Part shown: one piece after another, positions 1-52,979 of the stretch | Layout of the letters: each line of letters begins with the position of its first letter | Numbering within the stretch: the stretch's first letter is position 1 | Source of the DNA: Clostridia bacterium | GTDB taxonomy: Bacteria; Bacillota; Clostridia; UBA1212 | Direction of reading: 5' to 3' | DNA: 64,000 nt | NCBI GenBank assembly: GCA_017444825.1 | Contig: JAFSVU010000004.1 | Coordinates: 59,025 to 123,024 of the forward strand | The notes under the pieces: model-generated | What the model was told of the DNA's origin: nothing | Seen by the model: the letters and a program-made list of their open reading frames with translations, nothing else | Database searches by the model: none | Program-made: the position numbers and the translations under genes

Positions 1-2778
1 TGGCTCCTCCTTTTCAAAAACGAGACTCACAACCACCCCACAGAGATCGAGCCCTTCGGCGGCGCCTCCACCTGCATCGGCGGAGCCATCAGGGACCCCC
101 TCTCAGGCCGTTCCTACGTCTACGGGGCAATGCGCGTAACAGGTGCGTCCGACCCGACAGTTCCCGTTGACGAGACGATCCCCGGAAAGCTTCCACAGAG
201 AAAGATCGTCACCGAGGCGGCTGCGGGCTACGCGTCCTACGGAAACCAGATCGGTCTTGCCACAGGCATCGTTGACGAGATCTACCACCCGGGCTATGCC
301 GCAAAGCGCATGGAGATCGGAGCCGTTATAGCCGCGGCGCCGGCGGCCAATGTGCGCCGCGAGCGTCCCGCGCCGGGCGATGTGGTCATACTTCTCGGCG
401 GAGCCACAGGCCGCGACGGCATCGGCGGCGCAACGGGCTCGTCAAAAGCCCACGATTCCCACAGCGTGGAGACCTGCGGAGCCGAGGTCCAGAAAGGCAA
501 CGCCCCGGAGGAGCGGAAGCTCCAGAGGCTGTTCAGAGATCCCGAAGCCTCCCGCATGATAAAGCGTTGCAACGACTTTGGCGCGGGCGGCGTCTCTGTT
601 GCCATTGGCGAGCTGGCTGACGGTCTCGACATCGACCTTGACGCGGTGCCCAAGAAATACGAAGGCCTTGACGGTACGGAGCTTGCCATTTCGGAGTCCC
701 AGGAGCGCATGGCTGTCGTGGTGGCGCCGGAGGACGCAAATGCATTCCTCGCTCTCTGCTCAAAAGAAAACCTGAGCGCTACCCCCGTTGCGAAGGTCAA
801 ATCCGAGCCACGCCTCACCATGACCTGGAGAGGCAGCAGGATCGTCGACATCAGCCGCGAATTCTTAGACTCGAGCGGCGCTGAAAAACACGCCAATGCA
901 TCAGTCTCAAAGCCGGTCCTCGAAAGCGAATCGGTGACGGGCAATTTTACAGAAAACTACAGGAAACTCTCATCCGACCTCAACGTATGCTCGAAGCGGG
1001 GCCTTGCGGAGCGCTTTGACTCCACCATCGGAGCCGGCACGGTCATGATGCCCTTCGGCGGCGACCTCCAGCTCACGCCCTCCCAGGCGATGGTCCAGAA
1101 GATATCAGTTGAGCACGGCCACACCGATGACTGCTCCTTTATGGCCTGGGGCTACGATCCCTTTGTTTCGGAAAAGAGCCCCTACCACGGGGCATATCTC
1201 GCGGTGGTGGAGTCCGTATGCAAGCTGATCGCGTCCGGCGCGTCCTTTGACGACACCTACCTCACGTTCCAGGAATACTTCGAAAGACTCGGAAGCGATC
1301 CCCACCGCTGGGGCAAGCCTCTCGCCGCTCTTCTCGGCGCCTTCAGGGCCCAGATGGATCTCGGCATAGGCTCCATTGGCGGCAAGGACTCCATGTCCGG
1401 CTCCTTTGAAAACATCCACGTTCCGCCCACCCTCGTGTCCTTTGCGGTCACCACGGACAAGGCGGAAAACGTCATCACACCGGAGTTCAAGCAGGCAGGA
1501 AACACCGTTGTCCTCCTCAGTCCCAAAACCCGGGAAAGCGGCCTTCTGGGCCCTGAGTCGCTCATTGGCGTCTTTAACAAGGTCACAGCTCTGATGCGGA
1601 GCGGCCGCGTGGCAGCATGCTTCACCCCCGCCATGGGAGGTATCGCCGCGGCAGTTATGAAAATGGCTTTCGGCAACGGTTTTGGCTTCGACTTCGCGCC
1701 GACCTTCACCCTAAATGACCTCTTCTCCCGCTGCAACGGATCCTTCGTGATCGAGCTCACCCCCGGCGAGATTCCTGCAGGCGCAGTAACGCTTGGAACG
1801 GTCACCGACAACGCCTCGTTCACCTTCGGCGGCGAATCGATCTCCATCCATGAGCTTCTCTCATCATACGAGAGCCCTCTTGAAAGCGTCTACCCCTGCA
1901 ACATCCACCAGAGCGGCAAGAAGCCCGAGGCCTTCACTTTTGAGTGTGAAAACCGCAAAGCACCTGCCGTAAAGGTTGCAAAGCCCAGTGTGCTCATACC
2001 CGTTTTCCCCGGCACAAATTGCGAATATGACAGCGCAAAAGCGGTGGAGGACGCAGGCGCGGAAGCGAAGCTCTTTATCGTGAAGAACCTGACCGCTGAG
2101 GACGTGGCCTTCTCGGTTGAAAAATTCGCCAATGAGCTCAGCGCCTCCCAGATCGTTTTCATACCGGGAGGCTTCTCCGGCGGAGATGAGCCCGACGGAA
2201 GCGGCAAGTTCATAACCGCCTTCTTCAGAAACGCTGCGGTAAAGGACGGCGTCACGGAGCTTCTTTCAAAGCGTGACGGCCTTATGTGCGGCATCTGCAA
2301 CGGCTTCCAGGCTCTCATAAAGCTGGGCCTCGTTCCCTACGGAAAGATCATTGACGTGGACGAGAACTGCCCGACTCTCACCTTCAACACAATAGCGAGG
2401 CACCAGTCCCGCATAGTAAGGACCCGCGTGGCCTCCAACATGTCCCCCTGGCTCTCACTTACAAAGCCCGGTGAGATCTATAGCGTTCCCATCTCCCACG
2501 GAGAAGGCAGGTTCCTGGCCTCGGAAGACATGATACGCACCCTCGCTGAGAACGGCCAGATCGCCACACAGTACGTGGACCTTGAGGGCAACGTCACAAG
2601 CGACATCCATTTCAACCCCAACAACAGCGCCTTCGCCATCGAGGGCATCACGTCCCCCGACGGCCGCGTCTTCGGCAAGATGGGCCACAGCGAGCGCATT
2701 GGCAAATACCTTTACAAAAATGTTCCCGGCAACTACGACATAAGAATGTTTGAAGCTGCCGTGAAATATTTCAGGTAG
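1..2778 (+). CDS. purL: Phosphoribosylformylglycinamidine (FGAM) synthase, single-chain large form; 5' end lies outside the window
   Basis: Frame 1 is open from nt 1 and reads ...ETHNHPTEIEPFGGASTCIGGAIRDP..., a PurL signature. The C-terminal class-I glutamine amidotransferase carries GICNGFQAL (nucleophile Cys) and HGEGRF. Stop at 2776-2778. Confidence 0.93.
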   Translation, partial: WLLLFKNETHNHPTEIEPFGGASTCIGGAIRDPLSGRSYVYGAMRVTGASDPTVPVDETIPGKLPQRKIVTEAAAGYASYGNQIGLATGIVDEIYHPGYAAKRMEIGAVIAAAPAANVRRERPAPGDVVILLGGATGRDGIGGATGSSKAHDSHSVETCGAEVQKGNAPEERKLQRLFRDPEASRMIKRCNDFGAGGVSVAIGELADGLDIDLDAVPKKYEGLDGTELAISESQERMAVVVAPEDANAFLALCSKENLSATPVAKVKSEPRLTMTWRGSRIVDISREFLDSSGAEKHANASVSKPVLESESVTGNFTENYRKLSSDLNVCSKRGLAERFDSTIGAGTVMMPFGGDLQLTPSQAMVQKISVEHGHTDDCSFMAWGYDPFVSEKSPYHGAYLAVVESVCKLIASGASFDDTYLTFQEYFERLGSDPHRWGKPLAALLGAFRAQMDLGIGSIGGKDSMSGSFENIHVPPTLVSFAVTTDKAENVITPEFKQAGNTVVLLSPKTRESGLLGPESLIGVFNKVTALMRSGRVAACFTPAMGGIAAAVMKMAFGNGFGFDFAPTFTLNDLFSRCNGSFVIELTPGEIPAGAVTLGTVTDNASFTFGGESISIHELLSSYESPLESVYPCNIHQSGKKPEAFTFECENRKAPAVKVAKPSVLIPVFPGTNCEYDSAKAVEDAGAEAKLFIVKNLTAEDVAFSVEKFANELSASQIVFIPGGFSGGDEPDGSGKFITAFFRNAAVKDGVTELLSKRDGLMCGICNGFQALIKLGLVPYGKIIDVDENCPTLTFNTIARHQSRIVRTRVASNMSPWLSLTKPGEIYSVPISHGEGRFLASEDMIRTLAENGQIATQYVDLEGNVTSDIHFNPNNSAFAIEGITSPDGRVFGKMGHSERIGKYLYKNVPGNYDIRMFEAAVKYFR

Positions 2779-2896
2779 AACGGTTGAAAAAGGCAGAACG
2801 GAGAAAAAACAGAAGGAACCAAAAAAAGCAGAAAGAACCGAAAAAGCAAAAAGAACGGAGAAAAACCAAAAAGTCTGACAGGTATTCAGACAAAAG

Positions 2897-2941
2897 AGCG
2901 AGCCGCAGGAAAAGCCTCACATTGAGGTACCGGGGCTCGCT
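2897..2941. terminator. Hairpin between convergent purL and carbonic anhydrase genes (possible bidirectional terminator)
   Basis: An 8-bp stem pairs agcgagcc (2897-2904) with ggctcgct (2934-2941). An inner hairpin cctca/tgagg sits in the loop. Short T-runs lie on both strands (tgttattta on +, cttttg on -). Confidence 0.4.
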
Positions 2942-2968
2942 TGTTATTTATATCGCTTTGAAAGGTTC

Positions 2969-3502
2969 TCAGCAGATGATCCTGACCTCTCCGCTTAATA
3001 TGTCGTAGATCGCTCCTGCCACCGTCACGTCCTCATGATGGAAAAACACTCTTCTGATGCCTTCAACACCTTCCTTAACGTTTAGAGCACAGGCCTTCTC
3101 CGGATCCTGCTCATCGCCCGCGGCATTCTTGATGCGGTTCGTAATGACGCCAACGGTCCCACCGAACTCACCTGCAAGCGCAGCCTTCACCGCACCGCAA
3201 CCGGTATGGCCAAGTACGATCACAGTGCCCGCCTTAAGGTGCTCCACCGCGTATTCGATGCTCCCGAACTCGTGTACACCGATCACGTTTCCCGCAGTCC
3301 TTATGACAAACAGTTCCCCTATTCCTGCGGAAAATATCGCCTCCGGAATCACCCTGGAATCGGAGCAGGTTATTACGACTGCGCAGGGATGCTGCCCGTC
3401 TTTGTTTTCCGCCCTTTTGGCGGCAGAGACGTCGCCTCTGAAGATCCCGGTCTTTTGATAGCGCTCGTTTCCCTCAAGAAGTTTCTTGATCCTTTCGTTC
3501 AT
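2969..3502 (-). CDS. Beta-class carbonic anhydrase
   Basis: Zn-ligand motifs CSDSRV and HTGCGAV are present. Length is 177 aa. RBS GGGGG lies before the ATG. Confidence 0.9.
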   Translation of the reverse strand: MNERIKKLLEGNERYQKTGIFRGDVSAAKRAENKDGQHPCAVVITCSDSRVIPEAIFSAGIGELFVIRTAGNVIGVHEFGSIEYAVEHLKAGTVIVLGHTGCGAVKAALAGEFGGTVGVITNRIKNAAGDEQDPEKACALNVKEGVEGIRRVFFHHEDVTVAGAIYDILSGEVRIIC

Positions 3503-3560
3503 GATGTTACCCCCTTTAATGTTTCAAATGATCCCGGACATTCGTATTGGTCACAAGGTA

Positions 3561-3589
3561 AGTTTACTGAACTGCTCTATATTTGTCAA
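3561..3589 (-). promoter_or_regulatory. Sigma-A-like promoter for the carbonic anhydrase gene
   Basis: On the minus strand, TTGACA (3584-3589) is followed by a 17-nt spacer and TAAACT (3561-3566), about 60 nt upstream of the ATG. Confidence 0.4.
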
Positions 3590-3661
3590 TGAAACATGCC
3601 ATAATGAAAAGAGGCAGCAGATTACCCCGTTGCCCCTTCTTTCTTTGATTTGTCTGGACTA

Positions 3662-4330
3662 TCAGTCTTTGTTCAGATCTTCGATTATTTTAGTTACTAT
3701 AGCCTCAATCTGTTCTTCATTCATTACTTTTCCGGAATCATTGAGAGCCTTTGTTACAGCTTCGCTGATGGTGTCTTCGGAAATTGATGTAGTGATCTGT
3801 TTTGTGATCGCCTCGCTGATAATACCACCCAATTCTTCTTTTGAAATATCGTTTGACGGAAGCTTGGCCATTACCTGTTCAACTATTTTTTTCAGATCTT
3901 CATCCGTGAGCTTACTGTGGTCAGTAATGACCACATCGATTTCCTTGCCCGTCTGGTTTTCGAGAGCCTTGGTCACCAGAGCAACTATCTCCTCCTTGCT
4001 AAGCTGACCAATGTTCTCCGGAGCATTTATCAACACTATCCGGTTTTTTGTTTCTTTTTCAGCAAGCTCTTCTAAGACCTTATCAACAGCCCTATCCAAA
4101 TCCTCTTGAGTCATATATTTACCATTGTCATAGTTTGCTATTATTGCGTCAAGTTTATCATTAATATCTTCTTTCTGCTCGATTGCCCTGCCGGAAGCGC
4201 TGAAAACGCTACGCATAATCAGCCAAAAGATTATGAAAACCAATAGCACGACAATGATTACAAGAATAACTTCGACCCAGTTCCGGCGTTTTCCAGGCAT
4301 TTTGTCCGGTTCTTTTTGTGTATTTGGCAT
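3662..4330 (-). CDS. Single-pass membrane protein with acidic helical-repeat ectodomain (hypothetical)
   Basis: Start moved to the ATG at 4330, which is preceded by AAAGGAGGTG. An N-terminal TM segment (VEVILVIIVVLLVFIIFWLIM) is present. Repeats of the 'T..D..KA..E' type resemble the N-terminal part of the upstream pilin-like protein. Confidence 0.6.
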   Translation of the reverse strand: MPNTQKEPDKMPGKRRNWVEVILVIIVVLLVFIIFWLIMRSVFSASGRAIEQKEDINDKLDAIIANYDNGKYMTQEDLDRAVDKVLEELAEKETKNRIVLINAPENIGQLSKEEIVALVTKALENQTGKEIDVVITDHSKLTDEDLKKIVEQVMAKLPSNDISKEELGGIISEAITKQITTSISEDTISEAVTKALNDSGKVMNEEQIEAIVTKIIEDLNKD

Positions 4331-4365
4331 GTTTACACCTCCTTTTTTGTTCTGATTTTTCCGCT

Positions 4366-6270
4366 TTAGTCTGCGGTCATAGTTATTGTAAGCCCTGGAA
4401 CCTCGCATAAGAACGTCTCTTGCCAAGCATTTCCGGCATATGCGTTCCAAACTAAAGCAACGCCGGCTGTTGTAACTCCTTCAGCCGTGGTAGAATTGAG
4501 CATATTCCCTATATTATCAATAACGCCATAAAGACTCGAAACGCTAAGCGCCGTAGGATAAAACTCTGTCCAATCCTTCCAAACAGGAGAGCTGGAAGAG
4601 ATGTCCTCACCTGCGGTACTGTTTGAATTGTTCATTTTACCTCTGATCCCTTCGTACCAGCCAGCATAAGTGTTTTGAACAAACGCAATTCCTAAACCCT
4701 TTCTATAGTTAAAATCGATCATGCGTCGAACAACTTCGCTCTCAACATGTCTATAATCAGTAGTATTTCCGGTGCATTGCCCACACAGTTTAACTAGTAT
4801 AGCATCTGACCAGCCACCTAAAACGGTTTCGACATAGTATTCCAAGCTTGTTTCCGCGCCGGCAGAAAGCTCATTGATGTACTGATTTATAAAGTTTGTA
4901 TCGACGGATGCATAAGTCGTTAAACTATTATCTTTTAGCCATTTTCGGTAATCGTCAAATAATCCTCCCTGAGTTAAATATGGAATGTATTCTCCCGGTA
5001 AAGTGACATAATTGCCGTTTCCGTCAAGCGAATATATGGTTCCGTCACTTATTATTATCTGCGCCGCATTACGAATTGCATCGATTATTCCTGAACTGAA
5101 TACTGAAGAATCAATATGGAAGTTATGCCCGCTGTTATCTACTATTTTTATTGTATACCCATTGGACATGCCCGGCATCTCATATACGTCCATAAATCTA
5201 CTGTTGATATCAACAGGATCAAGTATGATCGTTGCATTTTGAGGAACATTGTCAGGAATCGTATACGTGACAGTACCCATATGCCATACATACGTACTAT
5301 ATCCGGTAATTCCATAATCTAAGCTATTTGCAATGCTGAACAACTGCATTGCTTTTGTGGTTCCAATGGTGTCCCCGTTGTTATACTTATGGTCATCCAC
5401 GGTGTTATACGTCAATACACCTGTAATGTGATATTCAACAGAACCGGCGGAAACTACTGTGACTACCGCTGTAGCACTCTTGGTACCGGATGTTGCAGTG
5501 ATCGTTGCAGAACCGGCTGCAACGCCTGTTACAAGCCCCGTGGCATCGACAGTCGCAACAGCTGTATCGGATGATGTCCAGGTAACGGTTCTGCCCGAAG
5601 GCTCCGTTGTAGCAGAAAGCTGAACAGTATCCCCAATTTCAATTTCGTCCTCTGTTGGCGTGACAGTAATTCCTTGAACAAATTGTTCAAGAATTTTATG
5701 AACGATGGCCGCTATATCATCTTCATCAGGTACATTTTCAAGAGCGTCATCTACTACTTCATCAACGGCAGTCTTTATCGATGTATCAAGACCAATCTCT
5801 TCAATCGCTTTCAGTATATCATCCTTGGTTATAGCTGTTTTTGGAAGTTTAGAAATTATATCTTCAATGTACGATTCGTCTACACCGGCTCTTTCAAGAA
5901 TAACTCTTACTTGAACATCCGTCAGATTCTTTTTAATAAGCTCGTTAAATATCTTTGTCAGTTGCTCTTCGCTCAGTCCCATATCGTCATAACCTTCGAG
6001 GAGTGCGATTATATTCCCCGTGTTAACTTCGCCTTGGGTCAATTTTTCCATGAGAGATTTTTCAAAATCCTCCCATGTCATATAGTTGTTATTGAGAACA
6101 CGCTCTGCCATATCATTAATCTGCTGGCTGGTGCGATCCTGAAGAAATACGGAATCGTTAGCTTTTTTTATAATTGCGGCAAACGTTGGAATGAGTACGG
6201 CCGCTATTATTGCAATAATCGCTATAACGATAACAAGTTCGACTACAGTAAATGCTTTTCTTTTATTCAT
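4366..6270 (-). CDS. Prepilin-type N-terminal cleavage/methylation-domain protein with Big_2 (bacterial Ig-like) domain and large unknown C-terminal domain
   Basis: The N-terminus MNKRKA|FTVVELVIVIAIIAIIA has Phe+1 and Glu+5, matching a type IV pilin signal. The segment VQLSATTEPSGRTVTWTSSDTAVATVDATGLVTGVAAGSATITATS matches the Big_2 pattern. Confidence 0.8.
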   Translation of the reverse strand: MNKRKAFTVVELVIVIAIIAIIAAVLIPTFAAIIKKANDSVFLQDRTSQQINDMAERVLNNNYMTWEDFEKSLMEKLTQGEVNTGNIIALLEGYDDMGLSEEQLTKIFNELIKKNLTDVQVRVILERAGVDESYIEDIISKLPKTAITKDDILKAIEEIGLDTSIKTAVDEVVDDALENVPDEDDIAAIVHKILEQFVQGITVTPTEDEIEIGDTVQLSATTEPSGRTVTWTSSDTAVATVDATGLVTGVAAGSATITATSGTKSATAVVTVVSAGSVEYHITGVLTYNTVDDHKYNNGDTIGTTKAMQLFSIANSLDYGITGYSTYVWHMGTVTYTIPDNVPQNATIILDPVDINSRFMDVYEMPGMSNGYTIKIVDNSGHNFHIDSSVFSSGIIDAIRNAAQIIISDGTIYSLDGNGNYVTLPGEYIPYLTQGGLFDDYRKWLKDNSLTTYASVDTNFINQYINELSAGAETSLEYYVETVLGGWSDAILVKLCGQCTGNTTDYRHVESEVVRRMIDFNYRKGLGIAFVQNTYAGWYEGIRGKMNNSNSTAGEDISSSSPVWKDWTEFYPTALSVSSLYGVIDNIGNMLNSTTAEGVTTAGVALVWNAYAGNAWQETFLCEVPGLTITMTAD

Positions 6271-6406
6271 AATATATTTCCCTTTATCTATAATGGTTCT
6301 TTACTCGTGCAAAGCCTTGTACAACAGACATAGATTTACACAAGAAAAGAATGAAACGCACCTCTTAAACAAGATGGTGCATAAAGTACAATAAAAGGGA
6401 TTTCAG

Positions 6407-6952
6407 TCAACAATTTAGCCTGCAGATCATAATTAGGATCCCTCCACGATTCATTGGCGGCAATATCGCGGTAAAAATCTTTTTTGAAACCCTAGTCTCT
6501 GCTTTTTTTATCAGATGACTCGCTGCACATATAAACTCTTTTGTCATCTCAAAAACGCCGTGCATAACAACAACAATGCCCAGCGTTACTGCCAATGTAG
6601 ATACAGATATAATCGTTTTAATGACCGGAGTATTTATTACATTGCTTTTTTCGTTTAAAAATCGAACAATATTTGCCGGATTGAATTCATACAGAAAATT
6701 AATACGTTCTTCTGAATTCAAAAAGCCTAGTTGTGCAACGTCTAAAACCAACAATGCATAGACCCATGAAATTATCACAGCCCAAAACAAAACAATAGAA
6801 ACCAATGCCACCCGCATCTTTCTCTTATAAAACATATTAGAAAGATAAAGCATGCTCAAAAAGAGCATCGCAAGAATCATGACCAGCATTAGGTATAATT
6901 TCCCTTCAAATAAAAAAATAATAATAATTACCTTTGTATACAATAAAACCAC
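6407..6952 (-). CDS. Hypothetical polytopic membrane protein
   Basis: The 181-aa ORF has 4-5 hydrophobic segments and lies in very AT-rich DNA. Its start codon is uncertain. Confidence 0.45.
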   Translation of the reverse strand: MVLLYTKVIIIIFLFEGKLYLMLVMILAMLFLSMLYLSNMFYKRKMRVALVSIVLFWAVIISWVYALLVLDVAQLGFLNSEERINFLYEFNPANIVRFLNEKSNVINTPVIKTIISVSTLAVTLGIVVVMHGVFEMTKEFICAASHLIKKAETRVSKKIFTAILPPMNRGGILIMICRLNC

Positions 6953-7151
6953 ATAATATTAATTATGAACTACTATTATGTGTTAATATATGCGTTTTTA
7001 GTGATATATGATTATTATTGTGTTTAAAAGAACTTATTATAGAGGAAATAAACGAAAAGTGTTGACAGTCTGTTCAGTCAAATGATAATATACCTGCATA
7101 GTAAAGAATGATTTTGGGAACATAATTAATATTATGTTTACTTTTTTTATT

Positions 7152-8024
7152 TCAAACTGCCCTTCTCCGCCGTCTTATCGCCAATACAAAAGCAGTCAGG
7201 CATATAACCGTCAATATTATCAGATATGCCTTATACCTTCCGGTCTTGATGATCCACGGAATATCCCCGCTTGAAATCTCCCGCTTTTCCGAAGTTAAAA
7301 ACGCTTCCCCGTCGATATCCTTCCAGAGGTTCAGTTCCCTCATATCGATGCCTGCGGAATATGCGGACGTGGGGATGGTGGCGTTCATTTCGTCGGCTGT
7401 CACACCCTCTTCTGTCCGGTTGTTCGCGCCAAAGGCAAGGGCCCCTGCGCATACATTCCCGGTGATCTCACCTTCAAGCGTGCAGTCTGTCCTGCAGTTT
7501 AATATCATCCCGTTAAAATCATGGGCGATTCCCCCCGCCTCGGCGGCAATGACCGTCGCCTTAACGCAGCAGTTTATGATAAGACCCTTGTTCCCTGAGG
7601 AACTGCAGGCGATGCTCCCCGCGATGTCGCCTCTTATCACGCTGTTTTCAACGGAAAGATTCATAACGGTGCCGCCAAGCCTTCCGAAAAGCCCGTTTCC
7701 GCCCTCCCGAGAGGTCTCAAGCCCTGTGATAACGCGGCCGTTTCCGTCATAAGTGCCATCAAAAGAATTATCCGTTCCGTACATCCCGATAGGCACCCAG
7801 TCGATGCCCGAAAGGTCGACGTCCTCCGTCTGTCTGAAAAATTTCCTCTTAAAGCTGTTCCCGCCGTTAACAAGCCTTGAGAGTTCGCAAATGTCCGAGG
7901 CCGTTTCGATGATATAGGGATCCCACGAGGTCCCCGCCCCCTTGAAAGGAACATCAGCCACGCAGGCGGAAAGGACCGTAAGAAGCATTGCCAAAAGGAT
8001 CGCCACAAGGAGGAGCTTTTTCAT
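7152..8024 (-). CDS. Lipoprotein with GLUG-motif-like repeats and C-terminal TM anchor
   Basis: A lipobox LLTVLSAC is present. G-rich repeats (GGLFGRLGGTVMNLSVENS.., AGGIAHDFNGMILNC) follow. The C-terminus is a TM segment plus RRRRR. The ATG overlaps the upstream stop (ATGA at 8021-8024). Confidence 0.7.
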   Translation of the reverse strand: MKKLLLVAILLAMLLTVLSACVADVPFKGAGTSWDPYIIETASDICELSRLVNGGNSFKRKFFRQTEDVDLSGIDWVPIGMYGTDNSFDGTYDGNGRVITGLETSREGGNGLFGRLGGTVMNLSVENSVIRGDIAGSIACSSSGNKGLIINCCVKATVIAAEAGGIAHDFNGMILNCRTDCTLEGEITGNVCAGALAFGANNRTEEGVTADEMNATIPTSAYSAGIDMRELNLWKDIDGEAFLTSEKREISSGDIPWIIKTGRYKAYLIILTVICLTAFVLAIRRRRRAV

Positions 8025-9286
8025 TTCCGCGCCTCCTTCCCGAATACCAGCCGGTTCAGCCCTGCGGTGACCCCGTCAATGGCAAGTTTCAGCACTATCG
8101 CCCCAAGCACCGTGACCGGAATGCACACCCCAAAGAACATGATGTATCTTCCCCAAAGAGGCGCATTGGCGTAAAAAGAGGCGTTGCCTACCGTCATGTC
8201 AAAATAGATGAACACCTGCATGTGGATCACGTAAAACGGGAAAGTGATCTCCGAAAACCGGTCGATCACGCTGAGCATCCTGAATTTCTCAGGCGGCTTT
8301 TTCTTCGGCGCGGAAGGGTCGTGATAGCGGATGATGAGAGCCCCGCAGGAAACTATGTAAAGCGTCGGAAGAATATACCTGTAGATGAAATAGTCGTCCG
8401 GGAGCGCATTGGCGTAGATCCTTGAGGTGTAGATCACCAGCAGCAGAAACTGAAGATTGCATAACACGCCAATGACCCTGCTCCAAAAAGGCGACTTCTC
8501 CTCCGGCGCTTTTTCCTTAACGGAATGATTGATCATCGCAAGAAGGATCCCGCAGACGACAATGTCAAGATTCGAAAAAACAAAGGTGTAGACCCACGTG
8601 TACCAGTCCGCCTCGAAGTACCACAGAAGTCCCCTCACCGCAAGGCCTCCCGAAAGAGCCGCAAAAAATACGATCTTTCGGCCCCTCTCGCCGAGCTTAC
8701 TAATCAGCAGGAAAAGCCAGGGCATGAGCAGGCATATCTGCATCGAAAGAGAAAGATACCACAGGTGGCCGATACCTGCGATACCGCCCTCGCCGTTAAA
8801 CGTAAAGGTGAGTATTCTCAGCGCGATGCCGGGCTTTTTCCAGAGAAAAGTCCTGTCCGAGAAAAACTCGAAGGCAAAGCAGTATATGTAATATATCGGT
8901 GCGTAGCGTATGAACCGCTTAAGATAAAAGATCAGCACCTTTTTCACACTGACTTTCCGTGAAAGGGGGTCTTTATATATATCGTATCTGCCCGTCAAAA
9001 ACCCGTTTCCCAAAAGGTAACAGCTGAGAAGTATGAATATCCAGACTCCCGCCCAGGCAGGTGTCTTCGTAAGAAATACGAAAGGCCCCTCTGCGGTCTT
9101 CATTCCAGGTATGAACTCCGATCCGTGGAGGAAGAAAACAAAAAGAGCGGCCAGCACCCGGAGGAAATTCAGAATATCCGGATGATAACGCTCTTTTCTA
9201 TTAAGCTCCGCGGAAATTGCAGTCATAGGATCGGGTCCCTTTAAAGCCTTTTGGGGTCCGCCCCTTGAGGCCTTCCCCCGATGCAT
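8021..9286 (-). CDS. Acyltransferase family 3 (membrane O-acyltransferase)
   Basis: About 10 TM segments are present, and the N-terminus carries RYHPDILNFLRVLAALFVFFLHG, typical of acyltransferase_3. The true start may be the ATG at 9226. Confidence 0.8.
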   Translation of the reverse strand: MHRGKASRGGPQKALKGPDPMTAISAELNRKERYHPDILNFLRVLAALFVFFLHGSEFIPGMKTAEGPFVFLTKTPAWAGVWIFILLSCYLLGNGFLTGRYDIYKDPLSRKVSVKKVLIFYLKRFIRYAPIYYIYCFAFEFFSDRTFLWKKPGIALRILTFTFNGEGGIAGIGHLWYLSLSMQICLLMPWLFLLISKLGERGRKIVFFAALSGGLAVRGLLWYFEADWYTWVYTFVFSNLDIVVCGILLAMINHSVKEKAPEEKSPFWSRVIGVLCNLQFLLLVIYTSRIYANALPDDYFIYRYILPTLYIVSCGALIIRYHDPSAPKKKPPEKFRMLSVIDRFSEITFPFYVIHMQVFIYFDMTVGNASFYANAPLWGRYIMFFGVCIPVTVLGAIVLKLAIDGVTAGLNRLVFGKEARK

Positions 9287-43715: not shown

Positions 43716-43807
43716 AGTTTACCCGCGTTAAAAAAACGTGTCAATATCAAAAATGAAGTTTCTCGCCTTGGTGTCGACCATAGCCGACAGTAAAACGCAA
43801 AAACTTC
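43716..43807 (-). promoter_or_regulatory. Promoter plus conserved upstream module R1 (in front of the TIR-NACHT-LRR gene)
   Basis: On the minus strand, TTGACA (43739-43744) is followed by 17 nt and TAAACT (43716-43721). The 70 nt from the -35 upward (43738-43807) match 46897-46966 at 61/70 positions by manual alignment. GTGTCAAT-like boxes lie at 43738 and 43771, 33 bp apart. Confidence 0.55.
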
Positions 43808-43847
43808 ATTCAGGTTTCAAAATACACATCCGCAAGAAAGGTTTCTA

Positions 43848-46874: not shown

Positions 46875-46966
46875 AGTTTATGAAAGCACAGAATTGGTGT
46901 CAATATCAAAAATGAAGTTTTCTGCGTTGGTGTCAATCATGACCGACAATAAAACGCAAAAACTTC
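46875..46966 (-). promoter_or_regulatory. Promoter plus conserved upstream module R2 (in front of 46181-46840 and the nuclease pair)
   Basis: On the minus strand, TTGACA (46898-46903) is followed by 17 nt and TAAACT (46875-46880). GTGTCAAT boxes lie at 46897 and 46930. It is the homologue of R1, exactly 3159 nt away. Confidence 0.55.
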
Positions 46967-47026
46967 GTTAAATTTCACCGATCTAATTACAACTATCTTT
47001 TATCAGATATCGCAGACCCGCATTGA

Positions 47027-47683
47027 TCATTTATACACATCTTCCGGAATGCCCGCTCTGATGTATCTCTCAAAGGGACTGTCAGTTTCCCAGTTCCAAC
47101 CTTCTGGCATGCTATCTTTTGAGATCCGGTTTACAAGGCTGTCTTCTTCCGTTGTCAAAAACACCTGTGGTATATTGGCGCTCATGTACTCAATGTACCT
47201 TAAGGCATTATCAGCATTTTTCTTTTCGATATATTCAAGCAGCTTTAATTTCGAATAATTGACGGGGACAGGGTGCTCATAAACACCGCTTTTTATCTTC
47301 CTTTTTCTCTCTTTTTGCTTTTGTGAAAGTCTATGAATTCTTCTGAATGTTTGTCCTTGCTGCTTTGTGAGCCAGGATAGAAGTTCCTCGCTGAAAGCCT
47401 CATCGCCGTACCGGATCAAAAGGAGAACGTACTCCTTGGCGATTTCGACAACAGACAGACTCATGTTACCCGGCCGAACCTTTGGCTCACCGTAGAACGG
47501 CATATCAATCTTTTTTGATAGATCACAGCGCAATCTGTAAACTAACTCTTCAGAAGCGCCTACGTCTCTCAGAAAAGTGTTCACCCTTTCCTTAAAGCTT
47601 TGAACTTCAGGGCTGTTTCTTCTTGCTTCAAGTTTTTTCGTATAAACGGTATTTGGCACACTGTCACCATCCAGGTCGGTCAT
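47027..47683 (-). CDS. Hypothetical 218-aa protein translationally coupled to the WYL regulator
   Basis: The ATG at 47683 overlaps the WYL gene stop (ATGA at 47680-47683). The centre is basic (KQKERKRKIK). The C-terminal segment YEHPVPVN...LTTEEDSLVN is of unknown meaning. Confidence 0.65.
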   Translation of the reverse strand: MTDLDGDSVPNTVYTKKLEARRNSPEVQSFKERVNTFLRDVGASEELVYRLRCDLSKKIDMPFYGEPKVRPGNMSLSVVEIAKEYVLLLIRYGDEAFSEELLSWLTKQQGQTFRRIHRLSQKQKERKRKIKSGVYEHPVPVNYSKLKLLEYIEKKNADNALRYIEYMSANIPQVFLTTEEDSLVNRISKDSMPEGWNWETDSPFERYIRAGIPEDVYK

Positions 47684-48660
47684 TCCACAGCTTCCCACGC
47701 CTGCCGCACAAACTCCCTGTACTCCTCCACGACCTCGTCCGGCCCGGTCACCTTCACCTTGCCGCCAAAACCCACGATCCAGCAGAAGAGCACGTTGTTC
47801 ACAGCCACCTCGACCGTAGCCTCAAACGTGCCGTCGCCCCGCAGGAACGTGTCCACCTTCTCGCCAAACCGGTCCACAATTGCATCCATCACCGAATTGT
47901 CGCAGATAAGCCTCACCCGCTTGCGCTCGGAATTAAACATGTGCGGCATTGTGTTGATGTGTCGCTCCAGGTCAAACCCCTTCTCCAGCGGGATCGCGTC
48001 ATCCTGCAAAATCTCCGGCGGCGCCACCATCCTGTCAACGCGAAAACTCGTCAAGCCCTCATACTTCTCATACCGGCCGATAACGTAGTAAAAATCGCCG
48101 TTCCACACCAGTCTGTAGGGACTGAAGCAATACCTGTACCCGTCGTGGCGCAGCTTCCTCTGCTTCTTCTCGTTGTACTCAAAATACTGGAACGAGATCT
48201 GCTTCTTTTGGTTTATCGCATCGTTGACCGCCTCAATGATCCCCAGCACTTTCTTGTTGGTCCCCTTGATCCGCCTCTCGACCGAAACGTTTCGAACCAG
48301 CTTTTCTGACCCGTGCTTTCCCGCAAGCGCAGTGATCTTCGCGATCAGCTTCTTGCTCTGAGTCGCCGGTATAAATTTGCACGACGCCAATGAATCGATC
48401 ATCAGCCTCATCTCCGCATCGTCAAAGTACCTTTTCCCGAAAAAGTAGCGGTTTTGCGTCGACTTGGTCATCTGAATGTCGAAGCCAAGCTCCTTCAGCA
48501 TCTCGATATCAGCGCCAATGGTCGTCCTGTGCGTAGTCATACCATACTCGTCCTCGAGTATGCGCATCAGCTGCGCCGTCGTCAGAAAATGCTCCGCATC
48601 GGTTCGCTCGAAAAGTATTCTGGCAAGCAGCCAGGGTCGAAGTTTTGCGTCAATGTCCAT
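47680..48660 (-). CDS. HTH-WYL-WCX transcriptional regulator (BrxR/CapW/PafBC-like)
   Basis: The N-terminal wHTH reads FLTTAQLMRILEDEYGMTTHRTTIGADIEMLKELGF. The WYL core is YRLVWNGDFYYVIGRYEKYEGLTSFRVDRM. A C-terminal extension follows. RBS AGGAGAGG is strong. Confidence 0.88.
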   Translation of the reverse strand: MDIDAKLRPWLLARILFERTDAEHFLTTAQLMRILEDEYGMTTHRTTIGADIEMLKELGFDIQMTKSTQNRYFFGKRYFDDAEMRLMIDSLASCKFIPATQSKKLIAKITALAGKHGSEKLVRNVSVERRIKGTNKKVLGIIEAVNDAINQKKQISFQYFEYNEKKQRKLRHDGYRYCFSPYRLVWNGDFYYVIGRYEKYEGLTSFRVDRMVAPPEILQDDAIPLEKGFDLERHINTMPHMFNSERKRVRLICDNSVMDAIVDRFGEKVDTFLRGDGTFEATVEVAVNNVLFCWIVGFGGKVKVTGPDEVVEEYREFVRQAWEAVE

Positions 48661-48746
48661 AATACCTCTCCTTTTAAGGCACTATCTTGGAAACGGCTTT
48701 AACCGATCTGTCGACTTATTCATATCCTTATCATTTTCTATCTATC

Positions 48747-48986
48747 TTAGATTTTGTAAAAAGTAACTCGCTTATTAATCAGATCGGGATCCATCCTATA
48801 CCCGCAGCCTAAAACTCTCGTTGGAAATCCGGCTTTTCTGCCAGAGGGACTCCAATATACTTTGTACTTATATGCCGAATTGCACAATCTGGACCCGATA
48901 ATGTCTTCAATTTCCGCAAAAGAAAGCGTAAAACTGTTTTGGGTCTGATGTCTTAAGTAATAGATGAAGTTATCAAATTTGTTCAT
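48747..48986 (-). CDS. Hypothetical 79-aa protein
   Basis: A strong RBS AGGAGG lies 6 nt before the ATG. No motif was recognised. Confidence 0.6.
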   Translation of the reverse strand: MNKFDNFIYYLRHQTQNSFTLSFAEIEDIIGSRLCNSAYKYKVYWSPSGRKAGFPTRVLGCGYRMDPDLINKRVTFYKI

Positions 48987-49020
48987 TTTGTTCCTCCTCT
49001 TTAATGTTTAGCCTTTTGTT

Positions 49021-49572
49021 TTATTCCGGCAGCATCGCTATCAAAGCGTCCCCGTTTTCCTTGAGCCAGGCATATTTTTCCCTATAATCAGGAAACACAC
49101 GAAGGACCTCATTGTAAAACCTTTTTGAGTGGTTCATCTCTTTCCGGTGGCAAAGTTCGTGGACCACCACGCTGTCAAGCACCTCCGGCGGCGCCAGCAT
49201 AAGCAAGCAGTTGAAATTCAGGTTGCCCTTGCTGCTGCAGCTTCCCCACCTTGATTTCTGCCGGCGTATCGTGATCCTTCCGTAAGTCACACCCACAAGC
49301 GGTGCATAGTGCGCCACGCGCTCCTGAATAACCTCTTTCGCACGACTCGCCAATGCATTTATCTCTTCCTGCGTCAGCTTCCGAACGGATGCCTTTGCCT
49401 GCTCTTTTGCCTGAGCCTTCGCCAGGTGGGTTTCGATCCACTTTTTGTTTTTCAGCATGAAGCGATCGATTTCCTTGTTTGTCGCAAAAAACGGCGCACG
49501 GATGATCAGCTTCCCGCCTCTTATCTCTGCTCCCAGCGTTTTTCGGTTGCTTCGGATCACTTCAAATTCCAT
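49021..49572 (-). CDS. YgjP-like (DUF45/M48-related) zinc metallopeptidase
   Basis: The motif HELCHRKEMNHSKRFY (HExxH...H) is present. Start set at ATG 49572, after GAGG. This family is commonly linked to Type I R-M loci. Confidence 0.85.
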   Translation of the reverse strand: MEFEVIRSNRKTLGAEIRGGKLIIRAPFFATNKEIDRFMLKNKKWIETHLAKAQAKEQAKASVRKLTQEEINALASRAKEVIQERVAHYAPLVGVTYGRITIRRQKSRWGSCSSKGNLNFNCLLMLAPPEVLDSVVVHELCHRKEMNHSKRFYNEVLRVFPDYREKYAWLKENGDALIAMLPE

Positions 49573-49756
49573 CTGTTGCCTCATTATCTCCGTTGCCGTT
49601 ATTATCAGGCGGCTGGGGACTACTTTTCTGATGCAATTCATTTTGTTTCAGTTTCATGATACTAAGGAGCTGTTTCATTAGCTCTTCATCCTCTGGCGTA
49701 ATATCAAAATCGTCATCTGGTTCCTCTATTAATGCTTCAATCTTCCTCATCTTCAT
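49562..49756 (-). CDS. Possible small acidic protein (64 aa)
   Basis: The ORF has no convincing RBS. It overlaps both neighbours. Its composition is strongly acidic. Confidence 0.3.
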   Translation of the reverse strand: MKMRKIEALIEEPDDDFDITPEDEELMKQLLSIMKLKQNELHQKSSPQPPDNNGNGDNEATDGI

Positions 49757-52789: not shown

Positions 52790-52979
52790 ATACTGACCTC
52801 CGGATGTTAAATCATTATCTCGCAAAACTGCGTAATCAGTTTATTATCGCATTCTGGAAATACCTTTTCAAGCCTCTCATCTGCCAAATAACACTTGCTG
52901 TCGCTTACGCCCGACACCAAAAACATTAATTCTTTCTTTCCGGGATTCAATGGACTATTTAAGTCACATTATCCACCGG

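Follow-up and report, generated by a model that had tools for sequence, protein, structure and literature searches.

Does a WYL-domain regulator form a dedicated unit with the unannotated gene that directly follows it in a clostridial defense island? The question is raised by a 64,000-nucleotide stretch of a Clostridia bacterium genome (assembly GCA_017444825.1, contig JAFSVU010000004.1), here termed the window. Its minus strand carries two co-oriented open reading frames (ORFs), 47680–48660, encoding a 326-amino-acid WYL protein, and 47027–47683, which can be read as a 218-amino-acid protein, the conserved part of which is termed X. The original prediction, made from the sequence alone, took the two genes for a translationally coupled regulator and effector or sensor. 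Our analysis revealed that both genes are real and X is conserved, that the junction between them is mosaic, and that the partner statistics described below hold. The explanation we favor, with moderate confidence, is that WYL and X are probably co-transcribed genes that became adjacent by recombination rather than a dedicated regulator–effector system, and that X is directed at DNA.

The mosaic junction between the WYL gene and X

About 17 independent X loci outside the window lineage were compared, and in none of them was a WYL gene located directly before X. The survey proposed with the original prediction, i.e., whether homologs of the 218-amino-acid protein are always preceded by WYL genes, thus gave a negative answer. 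In the genus of the window and among its relatives, the WYL orthologs (60–99% identical) stood at or near the end of the gene series, behind type I restriction–modification (R-M)/YgjP, McrBC, BREX, or helicase modules, and the gene downstream of WYL differed in every ortholog outside the window lineage. On these two counts, the proposed regulator–effector unit is not upheld.

The individual WYL loci illustrate this variability. In L010 (WYL 99% identical), HsdR–YgjP–DUF7662 precedes WYL and X follows it; in L011 (85%), the flanks are HsdR–YgjP–SLATT/SMODS–McrB–McrC and a 105-amino-acid gene. Two large proteins, one with Sel1, stand upstream in L012 (81%) and a 113-amino-acid gene downstream, while L050 (82%) carries a giant helicase, Lactamase_B, and Sel1 before WYL and a 55-amino-acid gene after it. 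In L051–L053 (62%), WYL is preceded by BREX PglZ/BrxL and a desulfurase-like gene and followed by Macro-NADAR. The 3′ end of this BREX-type locus (positions 1–9125, with BrxC/PglY, PglZ, and BrxL) consists of Aminotran_5 (cysteine-desulfurase-like), WYL, and a Macro-NADAR fusion, after which a LexA-like S24 peptidase gene is encoded. The DNA similarity of L011, L012, and L050 to the window starts at the WYL ATG and stops at its stop codon, which marks the WYL gene as a portable cassette. Gaps of 1–35 nt leave no promoter region for WYL in L011, L012, L050, and L051.

The composition of the two genes also changes at their junction, the GC content at third codon positions (GC3) being 0.75 in WYL, 0.46 in X, and 0.44 in the upstream DUF7662 gene. 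This step, together with the gene-precise homology boundaries, bears out the earlier suggestion that the GC-rich regulator gene has a mosaic origin. Between the window and L010, 34 of 327 codons differ in WYL, 6 of 210 in X (start codon aside), and 2 of 80 in DUF7662; WYL (47680–48660 versus L010 6001–6981) is three to four times more codon-diverged than the flanking genes. Such an excess between otherwise near-identical loci suggests that the regulator alone underwent allelic replacement.

Next, the start of X was considered. The junction in the window reads gtggaATGAccg, where the WYL TGA (47682–47680) overlaps an ATG (47683–47681) that is in frame with X. All 10 close homologs (53–77% identity, 209–211 amino acids) begin with MPNT or MANT, which corresponds to residue 9 of the 218-amino-acid reading, a GTG at 47659 in the window. 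In L010, the junction is TGA-CCCGGATGGTGACAGT-ATG-CCA, with the X ATG located 16 nt past the WYL stop. L010 and three contigs that cross the junction (X4, X6, and X10, from three sheep and goat gut metagenomes, about 95–98% identical) share a 4-nt deletion at 47674–47677 and a C>T change at 47659 (G>A on the coding strand). The latter converts GTG to ATG and the former throws the ATGA-ATG out of frame, so that four of the five close lineages cannot use it to start X. In these deletion-bearing relatives, 47660..47683 is a non-coding spacer with the Shine–Dalgarno-like GGATGGTGA, and in the AlphaFold2 model of the 218-amino-acid reading, residues 1–10 have a low predicted local distance difference test score (pLDDT).

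Based on the homolog starts, the shared deletion, and the low N-terminal pLDDT, the conserved gene X is assigned to 47027–47659, encoding 210 amino acids. In the window strain, either the ATG at 47683 or the GTG at 47659 could start X. The ATGA coupling is peculiar to this strain and may compensate for the change of ATG to GTG. The overlap described in the original prediction is therefore present here but not conserved, and translational coupling, as judged by the junctions of L010 and the three metagenomic contigs, is strain-specific.

The WYL protein itself matched Pfam WYL (PF13280; E 3.1e-12, 46.7 bits, cut-off 21.8), WCX, the C-terminal dimerization domain (PF25583; E 3e-11, 43.9 bits, cut-off 23.9), and the PADLOC ‘WYL’ model (1e-30). 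At the N-terminus, HTH_33/HTH_11 were detected at E about 0.02 and 15 bits, with cut-offs of 25 bits, and a YafY-like pattern was recognized by eye. Of the proposed architecture of winged helix-turn-helix (wHTH), WYL, and WCX, the latter two domains were thus confirmed, and the wHTH was weakly detected below its cut-off. The motifs quoted earlier were found in the sequence, and the assignment to a BrxR/CapW/PafBC-type architecture with a defense association was upheld. The defense company of WYL comprises type I R-M/YgjP, McrBC with SLATT-SMODS, BREX, and the UzuA and TIR-NACHT-LRR genes of the window.

The transcription unit and the R modules

No terminator-like site was found between WYL and X, and the gap between them is 0–16 nt across lineages; we infer that the two genes are co-transcribed. 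A hairpin, R2, is located 60 nt past the X stop codon (Table 1) and is likely the terminator of the WYL–X transcript as well as a candidate operator. We propose that X would be made from a YgjP–DUF7662–WYL–X transcript ending at this hairpin. Carried on this transcript, X would follow in its level the control of the latter, possibly by WYL itself.

Table 1. Features of the WYL–X locus and of the R modules in the window (aa, amino acids).
Feature	Position	Strand	Remarks
YgjP-like metallopeptidase	49021..49641	-	Pfam YgjP-like 6e-47; first gene of strain-shared block
Stand-alone DUF7662 protein	48747..48986	-	79 aa; Pfam DUF7662 4e-7, above cut-off
WYL-WCX transcription regulator	47680..48660	-	326 aa; GC-rich; Pfam, PADLOC, and PDB sequence matches
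N-terminal extension of X, eight codons, this strain only	47660..47683	-	in frame with ATGA-overlapping ATG
Protein X, conserved core ORF	47027..47659	-	210 aa; GTG start here, ATG in relatives
R2 module window	46897..46969		
Hairpin with inner palindrome TGTCGG-N7-TGACA, then T-run (R2)	46905..46966	-	-20 kcal/mol, z = -4.1
Sigma-70-like promoter TTGACA-17-TAAACT	46875..46903	-	scan score 10/12; precedes DUF6273, UzuA operon
R1 module, twin of R2	43738..43810		before TIR-NACHT-LRR gene

The block common to closely related strains spans about 46897–49610, and the contigs X4, X6, and X10 part from the window at 49609/49610. The YgjP ORF (listed with 206 amino acids; region 49572–49641) probably begins 23 codons later, at MEFEV, its L010 ortholog having 183 amino acids; strains related to the window diverge at 49610, just upstream of this probable later start. 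On the same strand, YgjP, small ORFs, an AlbA_2 ATPase, hsdM remnants, and an XRE/ImmA gene are encoded upstream of the pair. The pair was originally placed at the head of the island, which does not hold, as the genes from YgjP to XRE/ImmA precede it.

The R modules share the form TGTCGG-N7-YGACACC...CATTTTTGATATTGAC(A)-17-TAAACT, the promoter element being conserved in all copies, and recur in L010, L012, L050, G354, and G412. This raises the possibility that the actual targets of WYL are the R1/R2 modules (TGTCGG-N7-YGACA, 27 bp before TTGACA-17-TAAACT) heading the DUF6273/UzuA and TIR-NACHT-LRR operons, with X as a passenger. We regard this reading, which is compatible with the explanation favored above, as a real though somewhat doubtful possibility. 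In otherwise unrelated gene contexts, the module is located 3 kb downstream of the 81% identical WYL in L012/G354 (L012 9960–10060) and 2–4.6 kb downstream of the 82–83% identical WYL in L050/G412 (L050 10040–10150). A TGTCG-N8-CGACA palindrome also stands before a promoter after the 62% identical WYL in L051, and a comparable binding to inverted repeats has been described for BrxR (PMC9122601). Among the 47 genomes of the order, the module was present in four, all from the genus of the window, and three of these four were the only ones with a WYL ortholog of at least 80% identity, i.e., all three such genomes carry the module.

Against these associations, G410, a 97% complete genome, contains two modules, heading the YspA-SNF2-MoxR-VWA-RtcB and AAA_14/DUF4143 operons, and no WYL ortholog at E ≤ 1e-30, while no copy of the module was found within 6 kb of the WYL gene in L011 (85% WYL). 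WYL and the module are therefore not obligatorily linked, and the modules of G410 led us not to accept the R module as proving regulation by WYL. The association within the genus is weak (3/3 WYL-bearing versus 4/8 module-bearing genomes, Fisher p about 0.07), and the hairpin also serves as a plain terminator. The earlier idea that WYL regulates the R1 and R2 promoters gains new, though partial, support from the recurrence of the module downstream of related WYL genes. A third palindrome, TGTCG-N8-CGACA (TGTCGCTTACGCCCGACA), was noted at 52899–52916, between the XRE/ImmA gene and the decayed hsdM; it is without the rest of the R module, and by chance alone a 64-kb stretch is expected to contain about 0.55 such matches.

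Family, fold, and possible activity of protein X

X remained unmatched in Pfam, NCBIfam, PHROG, and PADLOC (PADLOC-DB 2.0), in agreement with the initial statement that the ORF has no nameable motif; a comparison of 47 family members with Pfam at E ≤ 5 recovered fusion partners only and left the core uncovered. An exhaustive HMMER search over 1.84 billion representative proteins yielded 73 representative clusters, 46 of them below 1e-10, scattered over Clostridia, Bacteroidota, and environmental metagenomes. The named genomes were one Acutalibacteraceae and two Paludibacteraceae metagenome-assembled genomes, the latter from horse faeces, and of the 401 genomes of the class only that of the window encodes X. 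No match was found by tblastn in 50,697 phage and 72,556 plasmid records from cultured collections, nor in a scan of viral contigs for X loci. Between the window and L010, the six differences in X, start codon aside, are all synonymous, and the pattern indicates that X is conserved and under purifying selection. Conservation of the ORF, a point on which the original prediction could have failed, is thereby upheld for the 210-amino-acid core. In the Acutalibacteraceae contig L006, a 58-amino-acid piece of a second X copy (2914–3087; hidden Markov model positions 114–169) sits 2.6 kb upstream of a full-length, N-terminally extended X gene.

AlphaFold2 modeling with the 47-sequence alignment produced a confident model of X (mean pLDDT 96.2, predicted template modeling score 0.90). 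It is mostly helical, with about ten helices, only two short strands (134–136 and 173–176), and a helix at 178–187 following the second strand, as assigned by DSSP. The Foldseek search of the PDB, proposed at the outset, gave a best E of 1.3 and no nuclease, and BFVD contributed one uncharacterized phage protein at E 0.06. PDB sequence-profile searches with the full X and with its C-terminal half returned noise only (eL27, OKP1, REV1), again with no nuclease. X is a rare, horizontally mobile protein outside all described families, and its fold, which is predicted with confidence, is without a solved relative.

Conservation was counted over the 47 X sequences. L55, Y64, Q109, H137, P140, P193, and R206 are invariant; D54, Q173, M192, and W196 occur in 46 sequences, R114 and W198 in 45, Y207 in 44, and Q111 in 43. 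Position 136 is E in 41 sequences and D in 6, and position 181 is D in 31, N in 13, E in 2, and H in 1. The resulting motifs are [WYF][ED]HxxP, GQxx[LIV][TS], D/N181, MPxxWxW, and RY. Strand 1 ends in [WYF]-[ED]-H-x-[IV]-P, with the invariant H137 directly after it; strand 2 is [GP]-Q-x-x-[LIV]-[TS], and D/N181 stands at the start of the next helix. Read from the DSSP string, the elements follow one another as they would in a beta-beta-alpha-metal (His-Me) finger that, like DUF1524, has two helices inserted between its strands.

We hypothesize that X acts on DNA, most likely as a metal-dependent nuclease-like enzyme. Its core would be formed by a strand, a two-helix insert, a strand, and a helix in a His-Me-finger-like layout, with E136-H137 closing strand 1, Q173 within strand 2, and D/N181 opening the helix. 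X is probably a DNA-directed module and possibly a divergent His-Me-like nuclease, an assignment that draws on motif and topology without statistical support. Given the motif, the topology, and the DNA-centered company of X described below, this is the single most likely activity, which we put forward tentatively; we infer both DNA as the substrate and catalysis. The faint resemblance to His-Me-finger nucleases noted originally stands in part. The (D/E)H..P motif is invariant and located at a strand end, while the Asn named at that time, N185, occurs in 23 of 47 sequences only, the conserved partners being Q173 and D/N181, and homology searches lend the resemblance no nuclease match.

The neighbors of X vary between loci. 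A nucleoside phosphorylase is encoded upstream and an unknown 298-amino-acid gene overlaps X in L001, a phage large terminase carrying an intein is found in L002, a serine/threonine kinase in L004, AAA_14/DUF4143 and AlbA_2 ATPases in L006, LRR_5 proteins in L007 and L014, DUF6884 and GIY_YIG_2 genes in L014 and L015, an AAA protein and a MoxR-VWA pair in L045–L047, and large unknown proteins in L048/L049. The environmental metagenomic loci L082–L092 contain DUF2779 proteins, a ParA-like ATPase, and a NERD protein. On the phage-like contig L002 (1410–4745), the terminase intein is of the LAGLIDADG type, and the X homolog follows 43 nt after.

Most members of the family are stand-alone. Three representative clusters (P0014, P0016, and P0019) have DUF7662 fused N-terminally to X, other X proteins bear winged-helix heads (HTH_24, GntR, and MarR; two in P0043), and one has a C-terminal LRR_5. 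A gene for a DUF7662–Zn-ribbon protein directly precedes the DUF7662–X gene in L014 (2170–3744) and in L045–L047 (L045 5465–8524), two unrelated contexts in which this two-gene module is kept despite differing flanks. In L045, the module is followed by a third DUF7662-headed protein (537 amino acids) and a bpMoxR-VWA pair, an arrangement like that of effector sets sharing one adaptor domain.

In L087/L088 (L088 4063–6600), X forms the C-terminus of an 846-amino-acid DUF2779 protein. In L092 (3788–6384), it is separate, 12 nt after an 89% identical DUF2779 protein of 653 amino acids, the cause being a one-base indel, and in L090 (2226–6624) the DUF2779 protein lies 1.2 kb upstream of X. In DUF2779 proteins, a Cas4-like nuclease is joined to an RNase H-like 3′–5′ exonuclease (PMC3985635, PMC13621843). 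After the X fusion of L088, a DUF6884-containing protein of 635 amino acids and a ParA-like ATPase are encoded. DUF6884, a YaaA-like DNA binder that is probably base-flipping (PMC11701544), recurs near X in L014, L015, and L088.

Several points weigh against reading X as a DNA-directed, nuclease-like module that became the neighbor of WYL by recombination. The alignment of X with 17 DUF1524 domains by hhalign was not significant (probability 0.4%, E 0.14–0.16); when forced, it pairs EH with EH and GQ with GN. Neither Foldseek nor PDB profiles revealed any nuclease similarity of X above noise. The strand pairing and the convergence of the conserved residues were deduced from the DSSP string of the model alone, and no significant homology assigns an activity to X. 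RNA data for X consist of two read-length RNA-seq contigs from one metagenomic run, i.e., two reads from a metagenome, a weak sign of transcription. For most X genes (e.g., in L001, L002, L004, L007, L008, and L015), no DUF7662 is encoded close by, and DUF7662 is thus an optional companion of X. The fusion of X to the two-nuclease DUF2779 protein is at least as compatible with an accessory or recognition function of X as with a third nuclease. Finally, the WYL–X junction is conserved in all sampled strains of the window lineage, and a local functional link between the two genes could therefore exist within it.

The most serious alternative for X itself is a non-enzymatic one, in which it would be a DNA- or ligand-recognition, sensor, or regulatory domain accessory to DNA-binding heads or nucleases. 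Its position C-terminal to wHTH/DUF7662 heads, like that of ligand-binding domains of regulators, would fit such a role, as would its fusion to a protein already holding two nuclease domains (PMC13621843), its mostly helical fold with a basic isoelectric point of 9.1, and the lack of detectable nuclease similarity. We consider this somewhat unlikely, given that the conserved polar set (D54, Y64, Q109, R114, E/D136, H137, Q173, D/N181, R206, and Y207) resembles an active site, that most family members are stand-alone, and that X holds the slot of GIY-YIG nucleases in other DUF7662 fusions.

If X has a partner in the window, DUF7662 is more likely to be it than WYL, since DUF7662–X fusions exist elsewhere. 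DUF7662 occurs in 9 of the 401 genomes of the class, with one copy each, and its class-wide fusions include GIY-YIG domains at either end, a serine recombinase, and an unknown 250-amino-acid domain. Its AlphaFold2 model (pLDDT 90.8) displays the alpha-beta-alpha-alpha-alpha-beta-beta order of a winged helix, with wHTH domains of HSF2 and CodY as the best Foldseek matches, which were not significant. In the 2.45-Mb genome, DUF7662 and X are each encoded once, 1.1 kb apart and with the WYL gene between them. A bolder version, which we rate as unlikely, is that DUF7662 and X form a split, undescribed two-part DNA-targeting immune effector. It would have a His-Me-like (E/D)H...Q...(D/N) center in an unseen fold and varied heads (DUF7662, winged helix, and DUF2779), captured by a WYL cassette that induces it on infection or DNA damage. 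Two further scenarios were discarded: insertion of WYL into a DUF7662–X fusion gene is unprovable, as WYL flanks vary everywhere and the addition of cargo is equally possible, and X as a toxin or antitoxin partner of DUF7662 is contradicted by the existence of fused forms and by the window DUF7662 having no toxin-binding tail.

A dedicated, translationally coupled unit of WYL and the 218-amino-acid protein, like CapW-CBASS or BrxR-BREX, is quite unlikely. The genes lie in close succession on one strand, overlap in this strain, and stay together in every sampled strain of the lineage; moreover, a variable gene follows WYL by 25–35 nt in L050 and L051, so that ‘WYL plus variable cargo’ could be a general design. 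Outweighing this, X loci outside the lineage all are without an upstream WYL, the downstream gene changes with every WYL ortholog outside it, the ATGA start is out of frame in most close lineages, and both GC3 and divergence step at the junction. It is highly improbable that X is a selfish free-standing homing-type endonuclease located by chance downstream of WYL and useless to the host, as its sporadic distribution, the copy directly after the intein-bearing phage terminase, its AT-richness relative to its neighbor, and the HNH-like [ED]HxxP motif would allow, because it is missing from the phage and plasmid records, several copies belong to large multi-domain fusions or conserved two-gene modules, and it is retained across strains under purifying selection.

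The interest of the locus therefore lies in X, a confidently folded, unannotated family with DNA-centered partners (DUF7662, winged helix, DUF2779, GIY-YIG, and DUF6884). If X is a nuclease, it would add a new catalytic domain to prokaryotic conflict systems and provide a functional handle on DUF7662; if it is a reader or sensor domain, it would represent a new recognition module.

Comparison with known systems

Among DUF7662-headed proteins of conflict islands, which carry GIY-YIG, PD-(D/E)xK, DUF6884, or antitoxin tails, X would be another C-terminal module behind the head, and our analysis also recovered this head fused to GIY-YIG and recombinase domains. The window differs in that head and X are separate with the WYL gene between them, and most X proteins are without DUF7662.

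In its motifs and predicted secondary structure, X resembles the His-Me finger (HNH PF01844, DUF1524 PF07510) by an invariant acid-His-x-[IV]-Pro that ends a strand (DHxxP/EHIxP), a helix after strand 2 that opens with D/N in 44 of 47 sequences, and, as in DUF1524, a helical insert between the two strands. The second strand opens with G-Q in X and with G-N in DUF1524, the C-terminal domain of GmrSD, so that a Gln stands in place of the structural Asn of the His-Me finger. Unlike HNH domains, X has no zinc-binding Cys or His; its surrounding 130 residues resemble no HNH protein, and no His-Me member structure was among its Foldseek and PDB profile matches.

The WYL protein shares with BrxR, CapW, and PafBC its WYL and WCX domains and a length of about 300–330 amino acids, and a small, weakly detected HTH-like region precedes these domains at its N-terminus. 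BrxR homologs are reported to neighbor BREX as well as type IV and type I systems and to bind to inverted repeats (PMC9122601), and the WYL gene of the window type likewise occurs alongside defense genes such as those of BREX and of type I and type IV restriction. Several differences set the two apart. In a phmmer search of all PDB chains, PafC was the sole sequence match of the WYL protein (4.5e-4), the BrxR and CapW structures giving none. BrxR homologs are mostly proteobacterial, whereas the window host belongs to Clostridia (Firmicutes). Characterized BrxR genes stand at the 5′ end with their own promoter, while WYL genes of the window type stand at the 3′ end of defense operons, with gaps of 1–13 nt in L011 and L051; BrxR binds repeats between its own promoter and gene, whereas the candidate palindrome here is located downstream of WYL. 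The WYL protein is thus BrxR-like in architecture and company and is not a BrxR ortholog. Taken alone, it adds little, being one more BrxR-like regulator in a defense island; as a cassette with gene-precise boundaries that recurs at the 3′ end of many different defense operons, it informs how such islands are wired.

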